From Erythrobacter cryptus (lineage in GTDB: Bacteria; Pseudomonadota; Alphaproteobacteria; Sphingomonadales; Sphingomonadaceae): a stretch of DNA of 64,000 nucleotides. Both the position numbers and the translations under genes were made by a program. The notes beneath the pieces are model-generated. The model saw only the letters and a list, made by a program, of their open reading frames with translations. It made no database searches and was not told where the DNA came from. Below, one piece after another: positions 24,863-37,001 of this stretch. Within the stretch, counting starts at the first letter, position 1. Each line of letters starts with the position of its first letter. The stretch lies in NCBI GenBank assembly GCA_046297575.1, contig JBKBHR010000015.1, positions 2,664-66,663 on the forward strand, written 5' to 3'.

Positions 24863-25630
24863 TCACAGCTTCGCGATCAGGTCTGTTCGAGCTTTCAAAG
24901 TGTCGATCGCGGCATCGCCATGCTGCAACACGACCTGCCGCACCTTGATCGCATGAGCTTCCAGACTGTGGACCAGCCTTTCGCAGAGCGCCAAGTGCTG
25001 GATTCGGCTGAGCGCTTGCGTTTCCTCGAGCGACGCCTCGCAATGGCTGAGCCACACCGTGATATTGCTCGCGACATCACGAAAAGCCGCATCCATCGGA
25101 TCGGCGCCGCGGCCCCACATCTCGACGATTGCCTTTTCCGAGAAGACTATGCTCTCGCGTTGCTCAGGCAGAGCCGTCCGCAAATAGGCGGTGACATGCA
25201 GAAATCGGTCCCGCTCGCGCAGATCTGCACGTCGCCACGGTCGCTGCTTCTTCATGGGCAATCGACGAAAGGGCGCTGAAGGCTTCAGAAGCGGCGGCTC
25301 GCCTTGGCACTCGTCGCGCAACCGCGCCTCGGTGGCGCGGTCAATCTTGCCCGACCAGTTGTCTGCAAACCATCTGCGAGCGGTCATGTAAGCTGCAATG
25401 AAAGCGGCGATGGAAAGGGCCAAACCCGCCAACGCAGCGTCATCGGCTGCCAGCAATGATCCAAAAACAACCGCCCCGCCGATCAGCGCAACGAGGGCTG
25501 CTACAAGCGCAACCAGAAAAGGTCCGACTTTCCGCCAAATTTGGCGGATGATCCCATCAACCAGCGTGATGATCCTGATCAAGATCCATCCGGCAACTGC
25601 AAGCAGGGCAAGCGCGATGATGATCTGCAT
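24863..25630 (-). CDS. Low-GC orphan membrane protein (about 3 N-terminal TM helices + helical C-domain)
   Basis: 255-aa ORF; visibly lower GC with many A/T-ending codons compared with the flanks; no recognisable motif. Confidence 0.7.
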   Translation of the reverse strand: MQIIIALALLAVAGWILIRIITLVDGIIRQIWRKVGPFLVALVAALVALIGGAVVFGSLLAADDAALAGLALSIAAFIAAYMTARRWFADNWSGKIDRATEARLRDECQGEPPLLKPSAPFRRLPMKKQRPWRRADLRERDRFLHVTAYLRTALPEQRESIVFSEKAIVEMWGRGADPMDAAFRDVASNITVWLSHCEASLEETQALSRIQHLALCERLVHSLEAHAIKVRQVVLQHGDAAIDTLKARTDLIAKL

Positions 25631-31533: not shown

Positions 31534-33009
31534 TCACCCCAATTTCCATTCCCAGCCCAGGGGATCGCCGTCCATCACCTCGACGCCTGCGGCGGCAAGC
31601 TCGGCGCGGATGGCATCGGCAGCGGCGAAATCCCTGGCGGCGCGGGCCTCGTTGCGACGGGCGAGCGCGGCGGCGATCTCATCCTCGGTGACGGCGGCGT
31701 CCTTGGGGCGGATGCGCAAATCCGCGCGGGTGAGGCTGAGAAGATCAAGGCCGAGCACGCTGTCGATCTCGGCGATGGCCGCGCGCTTGGCAGCGGGATC
31801 GACCTTCTTCATACCCAGCACCTCCTCGAGCGCGGTCAGGGCCACCGGGGTGTTGAGATCATCGCTGATCGCCTCGGCAAACCGTGCCATGGCCGGCGCG
31901 AGTTTGGGATGGGTTGCGCCCGCCTGCGGCGCCACATCGGCGAGCGGGGCGGCGGCCATCACCATGCGCTTGAGGCGCGTGAGCGCGGCGCCGAGGCCCT
32001 CCCAGGAAAACTCGAGTTCCGAGCGATAATGCGCAGCAAGGCACATCAGCCGATAGGCAAGCGGGTGATAGCCCCGGTCGATCAGCAATTTGAGGCGCAG
32101 GAACTCGCCTGAGGACTTGCTCATCTTGCCCGCGCGTTCGACGAGGAAATTGTTGTGCATCCAGAACCTTGCGCCCGAATTCGTTGGCTCATCGAGGCCG
32201 TTGGTGCAGCAATGGGCCTGGTTCTGGGCGATCTCGTTGGGGTGGTGGATCTCGCGGTGGTCGATCCCGCCGGTGTGGATGTCGAAGGGAAAGCCCAGCA
32301 CCGCCCCGCTCATCACGCTGCATTCGAGGTGCCAGCCCGGGGCGCCGCGGCCCCAGGGGCTGTCCCACTCCATCTGGCGTTTCTCGCCCGGCGGGGTCTT
32401 GCGCCAGATGGCAAAATCAGCCGGGTTGCGCTTGCCCGCCACCGGCTCGATCCGGCTTTCGCCCTCATTGGTCTGCGCCCGGGCAAGCCGGCCATAATCG
32501 GCCACGGTCGAAACGTCGAAATAAAGCCCGCTCTCAAGCTCGTAGCAGTGCTTGGCGGCAATGGTTTGCGCAAAGGCGATCATCTGCGGGACATAATCGG
32601 TCGCCACCGTCCAATACGAAGGCTCGCTCCGGCCTTCCTTCATCGGCCCGCGGATGTTGAGCGCGCGCACATCGGCCCAATAGGCCTGTTTGTAATGTTC
32701 GGCGATGTCCCAGATCGATTGGGCCTTCTCGGCCGCCATCTTCTCCATCTTGTCCTCACCCGCATCGGCATCATCGGTAAGGTGGCCGACATCGGTGATG
32801 TTGATCACATGGGTGAGGCGGTAGCCCTTCCAGCTCAGCGTGCGCCCCAGCACATCGGCAAAGACGTAAGCGCGCATGTTGCCGATGTGGGGGTAGTTAT
32901 AGACCGTCGGCCCGCAGGTATAGACCCGCGCCTCGCCCGGGTGCACGGGCGCGAACACCTCCAGCCTGCGGGTGAGCGAGTTGTAGAGCGTGAGCGGCGC
33001 GTCGGTCAT
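31534..33009 (-). CDS. cysS: Cysteine--tRNA ligase
   Basis: CGPTVY, HIGN, PGWHLECS, KMSKS. Start at ATG 33009. Confidence 0.96.
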   Translation of the reverse strand: MTDAPLTLYNSLTRRLEVFAPVHPGEARVYTCGPTVYNYPHIGNMRAYVFADVLGRTLSWKGYRLTHVINITDVGHLTDDADAGEDKMEKMAAEKAQSIWDIAEHYKQAYWADVRALNIRGPMKEGRSEPSYWTVATDYVPQMIAFAQTIAAKHCYELESGLYFDVSTVADYGRLARAQTNEGESRIEPVAGKRNPADFAIWRKTPPGEKRQMEWDSPWGRGAPGWHLECSVMSGAVLGFPFDIHTGGIDHREIHHPNEIAQNQAHCCTNGLDEPTNSGARFWMHNNFLVERAGKMSKSSGEFLRLKLLIDRGYHPLAYRLMCLAAHYRSELEFSWEGLGAALTRLKRMVMAAAPLADVAPQAGATHPKLAPAMARFAEAISDDLNTPVALTALEEVLGMKKVDPAAKRAAIAEIDSVLGLDLLSLTRADLRIRPKDAAVTEDEIAAALARRNEARAARDFAAADAIRAELAAAGVEVMDGDPLGWEWKLG

Positions 33010-33046: not shown

Positions 33047-33709
33047 TCAATCCCAGCCGAGGAAGCGCACCTGCTCTTCCAGCGGCACCCGTTCGCGTTC
33101 AAAATTGTTCACCGGGGCATCCGGATCGCGGTAGCCGATCGCCATGCCGCAGAAGAACATCGTGCTTTGCGGATCGAGGCCGAGGAACGCGCGGATCTGC
33201 TTGGCATAGAAGGCCATGAATTCCTGGAAGCACGAATCCAGCCCCTCCTCGCGCAGCAGGAGGGCGATGGTCTGGAGCCACATGCCGGTGTCCGACCATT
33301 GCGGCTCGAGCATGAAGCGCGGGAAATAGCACAGGAGCAGCACCGGCGCGTCGAAATTGGTGGCGTTGCGCGCCATCGCCGCCATGCGCCCGGCGGCATC
33401 GTCGCGGGCGATGCCGAGCGCTTCGAACATCCTCGCCGAAACCCCGCCGAGCCGGGCCTTGTATTGCTCGTGCGCGGCGGGCGCATCCCAGCTGTATTCG
33501 AGCTCGCCGAGCGGCTGGCCGGCGATCATCGCGCGCAGATCGGCCAGCGGCTGGCCGGTGAGGATGGTGGCCTGCCAGGGCTGGTAGTTGCAGCCCGAAG
33601 GCGCCCAGCGGGCCTTGTCCATCACCCGGTGGATGACCTCGTAGGGCACCGGCCTGTCAAGAAACTGGCGGACGGAACGGCGGGTGGTGACGGCTTCGGT
33701 AACGGTCAT
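33047..33709 (-). CDS. Nitroreductase-family protein
   Basis: RRSVRQF, APSGCNYQPW, GMAIGY. Confidence 0.92.
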   Translation of the reverse strand: MTVTEAVTTRRSVRQFLDRPVPYEVIHRVMDKARWAPSGCNYQPWQATILTGQPLADLRAMIAGQPLGELEYSWDAPAAHEQYKARLGGVSARMFEALGIARDDAAGRMAAMARNATNFDAPVLLLCYFPRFMLEPQWSDTGMWLQTIALLLREEGLDSCFQEFMAFYAKQIRAFLGLDPQSTMFFCGMAIGYRDPDAPVNNFERERVPLEEQVRFLGWD

Positions 33710-34491
33710 TTCTTCTCGCTCTTGTCGTTGTCAAAAAGGGCAACAAGCCAGGCACGCGCCTGTCGCGAAGTCTCGCTCAGCCATCGGCCCGACTCGTTCC
33801 CCGCTGTCTGGATTGCTGCGCTCACTGCCTCGCCATATTCACCAGCAATGGTCGCGCCCGAAACTATCGAAGCCCCGATTGTCGTGGCAGCGTCTCTGGC
33901 CATGACAGATGCCTGTTGTGCAACAAGGATTGCTTTGTCGCTCACGGATTTTGTGATGTCGGCGATCGATCGGCCGAACATCGTCGCATATTCCGTGACC
34001 AGTGCCTTGAGCGAGCGCATCGTTTCGCTGTCAAGCAATCGTGTCAGACTGGATTCAACGTAGGAAATCAGGGATTTGATTAACTCGACGCCGACCTGTA
34101 GCCCATCCCGCAATTTCGCGAAGAAGCGCTCCCGCTCGTCTTCGCTCAGCGCGTGATAGCCGTAGAACAATGCGCCGATGGCCGCACAGGTGGCTGCGGT
34201 GGGATTGGTAAAGACAGCAGCAGTGCCGACCGTGACCGCTGCATCGAGAGAATTGCCCAGCATCAGCTGGCCCGCCGCAATGACTGCCGTAGATGCCATA
34301 TACCCGATGCCGAATCCGGCAGTCACTCCATCAAGCACTTGGCCGGTCTGCGCGATAATCGCCACATCGGAGGACTTCAGATGCGCGATATGCTCAGCAA
34401 AGAACATATTCAGGCTTGCAGGACCAAGCGCGGTTGCGCCGTATGATTTGGCAAGACTGATCACCATTGGCGCGACTTGGGATGCCAGCAT
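33706..34491 (-). CDS. Low-GC orphan protein with central hydrophobic hairpin
   Basis: 261-aa ORF, visibly lower GC; starts 3 nt after the cobT stop with GGAGG upstream; its TGA overlaps the nitroreductase ATG. Confidence 0.75.
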   Translation of the reverse strand: MLASQVAPMVISLAKSYGATALGPASLNMFFAEHIAHLKSSDVAIIAQTGQVLDGVTAGFGIGYMASTAVIAAGQLMLGNSLDAAVTVGTAAVFTNPTAATCAAIGALFYGYHALSEDERERFFAKLRDGLQVGVELIKSLISYVESSLTRLLDSETMRSLKALVTEYATMFGRSIADITKSVSDKAILVAQQASVMARDAATTIGASIVSGATIAGEYGEAVSAAIQTAGNESGRWLSETSRQARAWLVALFDNDKSEKK

Positions 34492-34494
34492 AGC

Positions 34495-36333
34495 TTATCT
34501 TGTCCTCCCACCCTTCTCATCCTCGAACAGCTCCGCCAGCTGCTCGATGATCGTGCCGCCGAGCTGTTCCACGTCCATGATCGTCACCGCGCGGCGATAA
34601 TAACGGGTGACATCGTGGCCGATGCCGATCGCCACCAATTCAACCGGCGAATGGCGCTCGATCCATGCGATCACGCTGCGCAGATGCGCCTCGAGATAGC
34701 CCGCGCTGTTCACCGACAGGGTTGAATCGTCCACCGGCGCGCCGTCGGAGATCACCATCAGGATGCGCCGCTCCTCGGGCCGGGCGAGCAGGCGGGCATG
34801 GGCCCACATCAGCGCCTCGCCGTCGATGTTCTCTTTCAGCAGCCCCTCGCGCATCATCAGCCCGAGATTGCGCCGCGCCCGGCGCCAGGGCTCGTCGGCC
34901 TGCTTGTAGATGATGTGGCGAAGATCATTGAGGCGCCCGGGGTTGGGCGGCTTGCCATCGGCGAGCCAGGCCTCGCGGCTCTGCCCGCCCTTCCACGCGC
35001 GGGTGGTAAAGCCGAGGATCTCGGTCTTGACCCCGCAGCGCTCGAGCGTGCGCGCCAGAATGTCGGCGCTGATCGCGGCGATGCTGATGGGCCGCCCGCG
35101 CATCGAGCCCGAATTGTCGATCAGCAGGGTGACGATGGTGTCCTTGAACTCCACGTCGCGCTCGACCTTGTAGGAAAGCGCGGTGCCGGGCGAGACGATC
35201 ACCCGGGCGAGGCGCGCGGCATCGAGCACGCCTTCCTCCTGATCGAAATCCCAGCTGCGGCTTTGCTGCGCCATCAACCGGCGCTGCAGGCGGTTGGCAA
35301 GCCGCGTCACCACGCTCTGCAGGCCGGTGAGCTGGCTGTCGAGATAGGCGCGCAGGCGATCAAGCTCATCCGGATCGCACAAGTCGCTCGCCGCCACCTC
35401 CTCGTCGAAGCGGGTGGTGTAGGCGCGGTAGTCCAGCCCCGCCGGGATCTCGCCCTGCGGCCGGTTGGGGCGCAGCGGGGCCTTGGCGCCATCGCCATCC
35501 TCGCCCGGATCGCCCTCGGCCAGCTCGCTGGTCGCCTCGGCCTCGGCGCTCTGCTCGCCATCGCCCTCGCCTTCGGCCATCTCGCCGGCCATCTCGGCGG
35601 CCTGGGGATCGCCGGCGCCCTCGCTCTCGTCCTCGCCCGCGCTCTCGTCGCTCGGCGCGTCCGCGTCATCGGGGGTGTCGTTCTCACCGGCATCGGGGGC
35701 ATCGGCGGGCCGGGTCAGCTCAAGCTCGCGCAGCATGTCGAGCGCGAGCTGCTGGAAGGCCGCCTGATCGCCCATGCGCTCGGCCAGGCCGGCAAGATCG
35801 CCCCCGACCTTCTCCTCGAGATAATCGCGCACCAGCGCGATCCCGCCGCGCGCCTTTTCGGGCACGGCCTCGCCGGTCAGCGCCTCGCGCACCAGCAGCG
35901 CGAGCGCGGTCTGCAGCGGCACCTCGGCAGAGTTCTGCGCCCGCACGATCTTGTCGGAAGCGGTGCGCAGTTCGGTCGCGGCATCGAGATTGGCCTTGAT
36001 CCCGCCGAAGCGGTTGGCCCCCAGCGCCTCGTAACGCACCTGCTCGATCGCGTCATAGCAGGCCCTTGCGATCGGCTCGGGCGGGGCGGCGCGGGCGTGG
36101 AGCGCGGGATCGTGGTGGCGCAGCTTGAGGGCAAAGCTGTCGGCAAAGCCGCGCGCCTCGCGCACCTGCTCTGCCGGCAGGTCACGCCCGGGCAGCGGCA
36201 CGCGGAAGCGGTTGCCCGTGCTTCCCGGGGCATCGGCGCTCCAGGCGATCTCGACCTCGCCATCGCGCGCGATTGCGCGGCTCGCGCCGGTGAGCGCCTG
36301 CTTGAAGCGATCGAGCGGGGATTGTTCGGCCAT
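34495..36333 (-). CDS. cobT: Cobaltochelatase subunit CobT (VWA domain)
   Basis: CobT N-domain, acidic linker, [30 protein letters not shown]. Start at ATG 36333. Confidence 0.92.
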
Positions 36334-36347
36334 GGGCTTGGGGCGCG

Positions 36348-37001
36348 CTAGAGGATGCTCTGGCCGGTCCTGGCCCAATCGGCAAGGAAGCCCTCGATCC
36401 CCTTGTCGGTGAGCACGTGGCGGAACAGCGCGTGGATCACCGCCGGCGGCGCGGTCATCACGTCGGCGCCGATGCGCGCGGCCTCGAGCACATGGTTGGT
36501 GTGGCGCACGCTTGCCACCAAGATCTCGGTGGCAAAGGCGTAATTGTCATAGATGAGGCGGATGTCGCGGATCAGCTCCATCCCGTCAAAGCCATTGTCG
36601 TCATGCCGACCGACGAAGGGCGAGACGAAAGTCGCCCCGGCCTTGGCCGCCAGCAGCGCCTGGTTGGCCGAAAAGCACAGCGTGACATTGACCATGGTGC
36701 CATCGCCGGTGAGCGCCTTGCAGGTCTTGAGGCCATCGACGGTGAGCGGCACCTTGATGCAGACATTGTCGGCGATCTTGCGCAGCACCTCGGCCTCTTT
36801 CATCATCGTGGCGTGATCGAGCGCCACCACCTCGGCGCTCACCGGGCCATCGACGATGCGGCAGATCTCGGCGGTCACTTCCTTGAAATCGCGGCCCGAC
36901 TTGGCGATCAGCGAGGGGTTGGTCGTCACCCCGTCGAGCAGCCCGGTGGCGGCCAGGTCACGGATCGCCTCGATCTCGGCAGTGTCGACGAAGAATTTCA
37001 T
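36348..37001 (-). CDS. tal: Transaldolase / fructose-6-phosphate aldolase (class 3)
   Basis: [22 protein letters not shown] (Schiff-base Lys), SPFVGR, ASVRH. Start at ATG 37001. Confidence 0.92.

Follow-up and report, generated by a model that had tools for sequence, protein, structure and literature searches.

Introduction

Regulators of the WYL/WCX class are known to co-localise with bacterial defence systems, and the cassettes with regulators of the BrxR/CapW type (PMC9122601) belong to the described systems closest to the locus treated in this article. The locus is an open reading frame (ORF) of 261 amino acids (P0001), member of an unnamed family, which is inserted between cobT and a nitroreductase-family gene in Erythrobacter cryptus. 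It lies in a 64,000-nt stretch of contig JBKBHR010000015.1, which is called the window below. We found that the cobT-nitroreductase junction is a hypervariable single-gene cargo slot in the genus, and we propose that the ORF can be regarded as a horizontally acquired, functional accessory gene of an undescribed family, whose product might be a membrane-acting effector of a conflict or defence system.

The relatives of the ORF share with the WYL/WCX cassettes the direct neighbourhood of a helix-turn-helix (HTH)-WYL-WCX regulator, placed either divergently or in the same operon; unlike in these cassettes, the effector family has no name and is absent from PADLOC v2, and the window copy resides in a housekeeping operon of a genome without WYL regulator. 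The second group for comparison comprises the transmembrane (TM) abortive-infection effectors, namely Cap15 of the cyclic-oligonucleotide-based anti-phage signalling system (CBASS), the TM effectors of Pycsar, the 2TM effector of retron Ec48 and RexB, for which loss of inner-membrane integrity has been proposed as the shared action. These are, like members of the family, small proteins of defence islands that have a pair of hydrophobic helices but lack an enzymatic domain. The differences are that the ORF matches no PADLOC model, has no recognisable sensor or signal-generating partner, and carries a hairpin less hydrophobic than the classical TM pair. The colicin and Bcl-2 'inside-out' bundles offer a third parallel, with an uncharged, Ala/Gly-rich hairpin amid amphipathic helices, a domain of about 180 residues and no signal peptide, although in the ORF the hairpin is central rather than C-terminal.

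As a site, the junction can be compared with the integration and defence hotspots at core genes, where a fixed position likewise holds differing accessory genes by strain (TIR proteins, toxin-antitoxin pairs, orphans). In contrast to these, the slot lies inside a coupled operon, takes up single genes of 0.35-1.8 kb, shows neither integrase nor att repeats nor tRNA, and often has an ATGA overlap joining the cargo to the gene downstream. Phage tape-measure proteins also combine Gly-rich hydrophobic segments with long helices, and some relatives of the ORF match them weakly; tape-measure identity was nevertheless rejected, the window protein having no such match at E < 0.1 and the family being absent from phage and viral-contig collections. 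The literature held nothing specific on a WYL-hairpin system or on a cobT hotspot.

Results and discussion

A foreign gene under purifying selection

The ORF is compositionally foreign. Its GC content is 0.569 and its GC at third codon positions (GC3) 0.634, against 0.696 and 0.871 in cobT, 0.661 and 0.864 in the nitroreductase gene, and 0.654 and 0.828 in the nearby cysS; the GC content of the whole genome is 0.686, and only 0.1% of its 786-nt windows are as GC-poor as the ORF. A preceding interpretation, made by inspection of the letters (the sequence-only reading), had described a low-GC foreign gene, and neither GC nor codon usage proved to be host-like (GC3 0.83-0.87 in the neighbours). 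Its account of the two junctions was equally accurate: the ATG of the ORF (34491-34489) follows the cobT TAA (34497-34495) after a 3-nt spacer, and the TGA (33708-33706) shares bases with the nitroreductase ATG (33709-33707). The repeat search found no direct or inverted repeats flanking the insert, there is no paralogue of the ORF elsewhere in the same genome, and the whole 64,000-nt window contains neither a tRNA nor, from 1 to 64000, any Rfam family, the cobalamin riboswitch included.

A word-indexed search returned 45 homologues, the closest of which (E = 1.9e-142 for the best) are 92% and 89% identical, and a copy in an Erythrobacter metagenome-assembled genome (MAG) is 77% identical. The exhaustive phmmer search against 1.84 billion cluster representatives (clusters at 50% identity) gave 122 representatives at E <= 1e-3, 45 of them at E <= 1e-30. 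The ratio of nonsynonymous to synonymous divergence (dN/dS) between the ORF and its two closest homologues is 0.05-0.07, and the ORF is a real gene under strong purifying selection. Its synonymous divergence is saturated (pS = 0.74, against 0.38-0.50 in the flanks); this could reflect an older allele, and we do not rely on it, as the comparison is confounded by the extreme GC3 bias of the flanks.

The cobT-nitroreductase junction is a cargo slot

With the nitroreductase gene as anchor the junctions were inspected across the genus (loci L013-L037 and L088). The ORF family was present in two of 25 genus genomes, that of the window and one other with 77% identity, and in 3 of the 401 from the order. 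About nine genomes have an empty slot: cobT and the nitroreductase gene abut, or overlap as ATGA. The genome closest to the window at the nitroreductase (G018, 83% identity) belongs to these, with an 11-nt gap. Such relatives had been named by the sequence-only reading as the comparison to be made, and the ORF, missing from 23 of the 25, behaves as an accessory gene. In other genomes 0.35-1.8 kb of unrelated DNA, as a rule poorer in GC, fill the slot, and at least eight cargo types could be distinguished (Table 1), several of which share the ATGA overlap with the nitroreductase gene. The junction is described here as a hypervariable single-gene cargo slot of the genus, at which neither an integrase nor att repeats nor a tRNA were seen.

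The sequence-only reading considered perfect coupling on both sides to be unusual for a foreign gene. This view has to be abandoned: tight coupling is a property of the site and not of the ORF, because empty slots and unrelated cargo genes show the same ATGA. Presumably the overlap is kept as translation of the nitroreductase gene depends on coupling. The same observations bear on the idea of a functional link between the ORF product and its neighbours, in which it would, for example, anchor the complex of CobT (a VWA/AAA+ partner) or the nitroreductase to the membrane, or serve either as an accessory subunit. Such a tie would fit the perfect coupling on both sides and the recurrence of the family at the same position in at least six Sphingomonadales genomes, yet the family is missing from 398 of the 401 order genomes, most of its members belong to Betaproteobacteria and have no cobT or nitroreductase gene nearby, at least eight unrelated genes occupy the slot with the same coupling, and the window holds no cobalamin riboswitch or other Rfam family. 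We consider it very improbable.

Conflict-type genes are also collected by the slot. One genome (G005) carries a TIR-domain membrane protein there, and in the Sphingomonadaceae MAG L058 a ribbon-helix-helix antitoxin resembling ParD and a ParE/RelE-like toxin, recognised by reading the sequences, stand between the family gene and the nitroreductase gene. A MASE8-like protein of 116-118 amino acids with four TM segments and a host-like GC3 of 0.88 lies 3' of the family gene in G322 and alone in the slot in G001 (locus L029); it could be a partner, an immunity protein or independent cargo.

Two alleles of the family share the slot

At least six Sphingomonadales genomes carry a member of the family in the slot: that of the window, an Erythrobacter MAG (L057), the Sphingomonadaceae MAG L058, a Sphingomonadales MAG (L059, the same as G272), a Sphingorhabdus MAG (L077), and G322 (locus L049), which is of the window's own genus. 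In the maximum-likelihood tree these copies form two strongly supported, long-stemmed clades, clade A with the window, L057, L058 and L059 (support 100/100) and clade B with L077 and G322 (100/99). GC3 is low in all slot copies (0.56-0.63 in clade A, 0.75 in G322). The insertion is no single, recent event, for at least four Sphingomonadales lineages have the family in this position, in the form of two old alleles.

Which allele is carried is not predicted by host relatedness. L059 and L077 are 95% identical in cobT and 84% in the nitroreductase, and their family proteins share only 43% identity; for the window and G322 the corresponding values are 80%, 75% and 36%. Within the clades the picture is different, family identity in clade A following that of cobT (77% at 87%, 71% at 74% and 51% at 67%), with 49% at a cobT identity of 68% in clade B. 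Alleles at odds with host relatedness, as in the two pairs above, would be expected for loci under diversifying or balancing selection. Two histories are possible: both alleles could be ancient residents which suffered massive loss, or they might have been exchanged among sphingomonads by recombination through the conserved flanks.

Relatives outside the slot accompany a WYL regulator

Outside the slot the family was found in chromosomal islands, mainly of Burkholderiales, Rhodocyclaceae and Geobacterales, and of one Sphingomonas; it was not found in 50,697 phage records, 72,556 plasmid records or IMG/VR. An orthologous HTH-WYL-WCX regulator adjoins the family gene in all four metagenomic contexts and at 11 of 26 non-slot GTDB loci, in divergent, upstream or downstream position. 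These regulators are 46-71% identical to each other, and their closest solved relative is PafBC-like. At most of the WYL-linked loci the gene is also adjoined by a peptide of about 55 amino acids (53-68) with two TM segments, which had no database match and of which three examples (Table 1) follow the pattern MFW..L...KLGA.S...W+KL. In the window genome neither the two-TM peptide nor a WYL orthologue could be detected, the latter by tblastn of three WYL orthologues against the whole genome. The 3-nt spacer and the ATGA overlap leave no room at the ORF for an adjacent partner gene of a type II toxin-antitoxin system.

Among the carriers are elements with integrase, VapE and ArdA, elements with DUF3631 and ArdA, Tn7-like elements (TniB/TniQ) and IS21-flanked islands. 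PADLOC scans of the relatives' neighbours revealed defence systems nearby. In a Variovorax sp. MAG (L063), Eleos (LeoB, LeoA), the two-TM peptide, the family gene, the WYL regulator and Gabija (GajB, GajA) follow each other; a methyltransferase with a DpdF-like helicase, a type I restriction-modification system, and a Tn7-like element with Wadjet JetA were met at three further loci. In independent genomes the relatives have known defence genes at a distance of a few kb, as judged by raw co-location over 18 loci. The sequence-only reading had suggested a gene-neighbourhood analysis; this found relatives next to WYL regulators, on mobile elements as well as in defence islands, and it speaks indirectly for a role in defence or as a membrane effector.

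The same surroundings allow another explanation, according to which the gene serves maintenance or establishment of a mobile element and not defence against phages. The WYL-controlled hairpin protein and the peptide would arrest division, exclude sibling elements or form an addiction pair. In the slot, the gene would survive on its own, either domesticated or as a relict. DriD and PafBC are examples of WYL factors that respond to single-stranded DNA or DNA damage, and the DriD-didA pair of Caulobacter is a precedent for a small membrane division inhibitor. The explanation is in line with the relatives on small integrative elements that carry integrase, VapE/DUF3631 primase-like, ArdA and TniB/TniQ genes, with the tiny two-TM peptide, which resembles small membrane division inhibitors and type I toxins, with the PafBC-like character of the regulator, and with the ParDE-like pair in the slot of L058. 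It is less easily reconciled with the many family loci that lack recognisable mobile genes within 5 kb and still have defence systems, with slot copies devoid of peptide and regulator that remain under strong purifying selection, or with the failure to find the family in the plasmid collection. We regard this explanation as unlikely.

The conserved part of the protein is an uncharged helical hairpin

The conserved part of the family covers residues 17-185, and the invariant positions, nearly all Gly or Ala, fall into the N-terminal core (G50, G59, G63, G74, G79, T101, A103, G106, A107, G111, L115, G134 and A169). The most conserved stretch is a Gly/Ala/Thr-rich hairpin without Lys or Arg and with one Asp, about 54% of which consists of Gly, Ala, Ser and Thr. 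It contains the small-xxx-small motifs GFGIGY, AAGQLMLGN and NPTAATCAAIGALFYGY, which appear across the family as GFGIGY, AAGQLxLGN and NPxAxTCAAxGAxxYG(W/Y). Its Kyte-Doolittle maxima are 1.35-1.43 (19-residue window), moderate values under the usual transmembrane cut-off of 1.6. The helices that follow, residues 117-171, are amphipathic with a hydrophobic moment up to 0.52, and the C-terminal third varies in sequence and length. The sequence-only reading had seen correctly the two Gly/Ala-rich hydrophobic segments (residues 55-113) in front of amphipathic helices (117-171), and also the absence of a signal peptide, the N-terminus being not signal-like as judged by eye.

AlphaFold2 with the family alignment predicts an all-helical protein with a predicted local distance difference test score (pLDDT) of 86-95 over most of residues 10-170 and low confidence in the loop 81-96 and the tail 183-261; a model of the core only agrees with the full one. 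Foldseek found nothing significant: in the PDB the full model reached E = 0.37 at best and the core domain 2.8, and in BFVD the best E of the full model was 0.06. The helical fold appears to be new. As to the proposed pore-former layout, the analogous arrangement holds, and there was no match to colicin, Bcl-2 or ClyA-type proteins by sequence or fold: the ORF did not hit Pfam Colicin (PF01024) or Bcl-2 at E <= 1, and the Foldseek search of the PDB, a set that includes colicin, gave E = 8.4 for Bcl-xL, E = 5.9 for AhlB and no pore-former fold match. The likeness to the colicin/Bcl-2 pore formers is one of layout only.

Domain databases gave little else. At E <= 1 the Pfam scan of the ORF returned KIF21A_2nd (E = 0.081) and REF (E = 0.12) alone, NCBIfam gave no match, and PADLOC-DB v2 contained no family matching P0001 at E <= 10; among its relatives the one PADLOC match was a compositional hit of P0028 to a ZorA tail (E = 5e-5). 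PHROGs gave no meaningful match for P0001 and no tape-measure match at E <= 0.1, and the weak PHROG and BFVD tape-measure matches of some relatives fall mostly on the repetitive tail. No informative extra domains were found in the longer members (P0063, P0086, P0099, P0106 and others).

Searched against PDB sequences, the family profile reached apolipophorin III (1aep/1ls4) at a marginal E = 0.004-0.008 over residues 162-255, a poorly conserved region modelled with low confidence, and ApoLp-III as well as REF scored below threshold in Pfam scans. These matches raise the question whether the protein is a non-toxic structural or stress protein of membrane or lipid surfaces, similar to apolipophorin, phasins or PspA, carried as niche-useful cargo which stabilises or remodels the inner membrane. 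If the protein is benign, its constitutive production along with housekeeping genes would be easily tolerated, the hairpin is part of a compact bundle in the AlphaFold models, and the weak apolipophorin-III/apolipoprotein matches do lie in the C-terminal half. They are, however, marginal (E = 0.004-0.1) and located in the least conserved part, whereas the conserved part is the hairpin core; a generic stress protein would not be expected to be closely linked to a WYL regulator, to lie in defence islands or to have two deep alleles that replace each other at one site. We hold this alternative to be quite improbable.

A possible membrane-acting effector

The ORF is a credible candidate for a new membrane-acting conflict or defence gene, because its distant relatives accompany a WYL regulator on mobile elements as well as in anti-phage islands. 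Specifically, we propose with a probability of roughly 0.4 that its product inserts into membranes as the effector of a conflict or defence system, operating without its regulator and being run from a housekeeping operon. Ancestrally, the family gene would have formed a module with the WYL/WCX factor and the two-TM peptide in Beta- and Deltaproteobacteria, within their integrative elements and defence islands, from where one lineage could have lodged in the Sphingomonadales cobT-nitroreductase slot and lost there both regulator and peptide. The hairpin would enter the cytoplasmic membrane from the cell interior and might oligomerise through its conserved small-xxx-small faces, and the resulting assembly would perturb or permeabilise the membrane. 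The protein could act in abortive infection, defend against phages or keep incoming elements out. How strongly the slot copy is expressed would depend on its coupling to cobT, with a damping effect, perhaps, of the atypical codon usage.

Several points weigh against this proposal. Given the hydrophobicity of the hairpin (about 1.4), below the usual transmembrane threshold, and its place in a compact bundle in the AlphaFold model, it may never enter the membrane. No likeness to a known pore former or defence effector was found by Pfam, PADLOC or Foldseek, and the window genome has no WYL regulator, two-TM peptide or paralogue. With these partners missing, one would hardly expect a toxic effector to be produced constitutively from a housekeeping operon, unless it is latent. 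The slot lineages stand on long branches and their function may have changed. The link to defence islands is guilt by association, tallied over 18 loci without formal background control, and the ArdA anti-restriction genes near several relatives would equally fit an anti-defence or element-establishment role.

A more far-reaching version can also be formulated, which we consider doubtful at present. In this the protein would be a single-protein membrane immune effector of new fold, gated ancestrally by a WYL sensor-repressor and the two-TM peptide, and in Sphingomonadales two ancient alleles would be balanced, or swapped through the flanks, in an operon-embedded 'micro defence hotspot' where each cargo gene is forced to be translationally coupled to a housekeeping gene.

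If the product is a membrane effector, the known systems would gain a compact defence or conflict module, made up of a WYL regulator, the two-TM peptide and an effector of new fold, together with a natural case of an effector running without its regulator. The slot is of interest whatever the function of the ORF: it is a single-gene cargo site in a coupled housekeeping operon, free of integrase and repeats, and it offers a tractable system for studying capture, exchange and expression of small accessory genes in alphaproteobacterial core genomes.

The operon and further observations

The operon partner of cobT is not a cobalamin gene but a transaldolase/FSA-like gene, which ends 12 nt before cobT and is probably the first gene of this tightly packed operon. 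No convincing promoter or terminator was found inside the operon (no promoter-like sites; two terminator-like sites against 3.9 expected). Within this tal-cobT-[slot]-nitroreductase operon, read-through together with translational coupling is the probable route to expression of the ORF. The likely start of cobT is MAEQSPL at 36333. At its other end the window CobT terminates in ...EDEKGGRTR, as against ...EDEKGTKRK in empty-slot genomes, and the GGAGG motif in front of the ORF arises because of the GGR codons in this tail; the cobT tail may thus have been adapted as a ribosome-binding site for the cargo gene. Assignment of the downstream nitroreductase-family gene as BluB was rejected (38 bits against a cut-off of 150).

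Table 1. Coordinates of the ORF, its parts and its neighbours in the window, and features at related loci
Feature	Position or genome	Strand	Basis or remark
261-aa ORF (P0001), unnamed family	33706..34491	(-)	TGA stop included
Conserved N-terminal helical core, residues 1-182	33946..34491	(-)	alignments; AlphaFold pLDDT 86-95 at 10-80 and 100-170
Uncharged Gly/Ala/Thr-rich helical hairpin, residues 55-113	34153..34329	(-)	most conserved stretch of family
Variable C-terminal tail, residues 183-261, amphipathic helices	33709..33945	(-)	pLDDT 34-48
Spacer, 3 nt, cobT stop to ORF ATG	34492..34494	(-)	
ATGA overlap, ORF stop/nitroreductase start	33706..33709	(-)	
GGAGG, putative Shine-Dalgarno-like motif in last cobT codons	34504..34508	(-)	12 nt 5' of ORF ATG; read from sequence
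cobT, cobaltochelatase subunit CobT, upstream flank of slot	34495..36333	(-)	TIGR01651 E = 4.5e-251; PF06213, PF11775
Nitroreductase-family gene, downstream flank of slot	33047..33709	(-)	PF00881 E = 4.7e-26
Transaldolase/FSA-like gene, immediately 5' of cobT	36348..37001	(-)	PF00923 in syntenic locus L001
cysS, cysteinyl-tRNA synthetase, 3' of nitroreductase	31534..33009	(-)	PF01406 E = 9.3e-75; conserved synteny anchor
Slot cargo: DUF7684 protein	three genomes		
Slot cargo: MASE8-like 4-TM protein	G001 (L029) and G322 (L049:8687-9037)		
Slot cargo: 139-aa orphan	G011		
Slot cargo: 149-aa orphan	G012		opposite strand
Slot cargo: 115-aa protein	G020; G022		with GNAT in G022
Slot cargo: two secreted proteins	G003, G006		
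Slot cargo: TIR-domain membrane protein	G005		
ParD-like antitoxin and ParE/RelE-like toxin	L058:6805-7430		between family gene and nitroreductase gene
Two-TM peptides	L006:5737-5898; L050:6739-6903; L054:7996-8202		
Eleos to Gabija island	L063:1633-12596		Variovorax sp. MAG
Methyltransferase and DpdF-like helicase	L060		near family gene
Type I restriction-modification	L066		near family gene
Tn7-like element with Wadjet JetA	L082		near family gene

Two further candidates were dropped. The tail of the ORF product, LFDNDKSEKK, recalls the cobT tail LFEDEKG..., with about 64% nucleotide identity over 33 nt as counted by eye; its origin by duplication of the cobT tail found no support from other cargo genes or from the repeat search. 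Kinship with the low-GC 255-aa membrane protein encoded at 24863-25630 (-) was rejected on a hhalign probability of 0.1%; according to the sequence-only reading this gene sits behind a CI-like repressor. Finally, the giant protein P0057 (4261 amino acids) contains 25 stretches that match residues 156-195 of the query, so that the amphipathic segment behind the core domain is found as a repeat unit elsewhere too.

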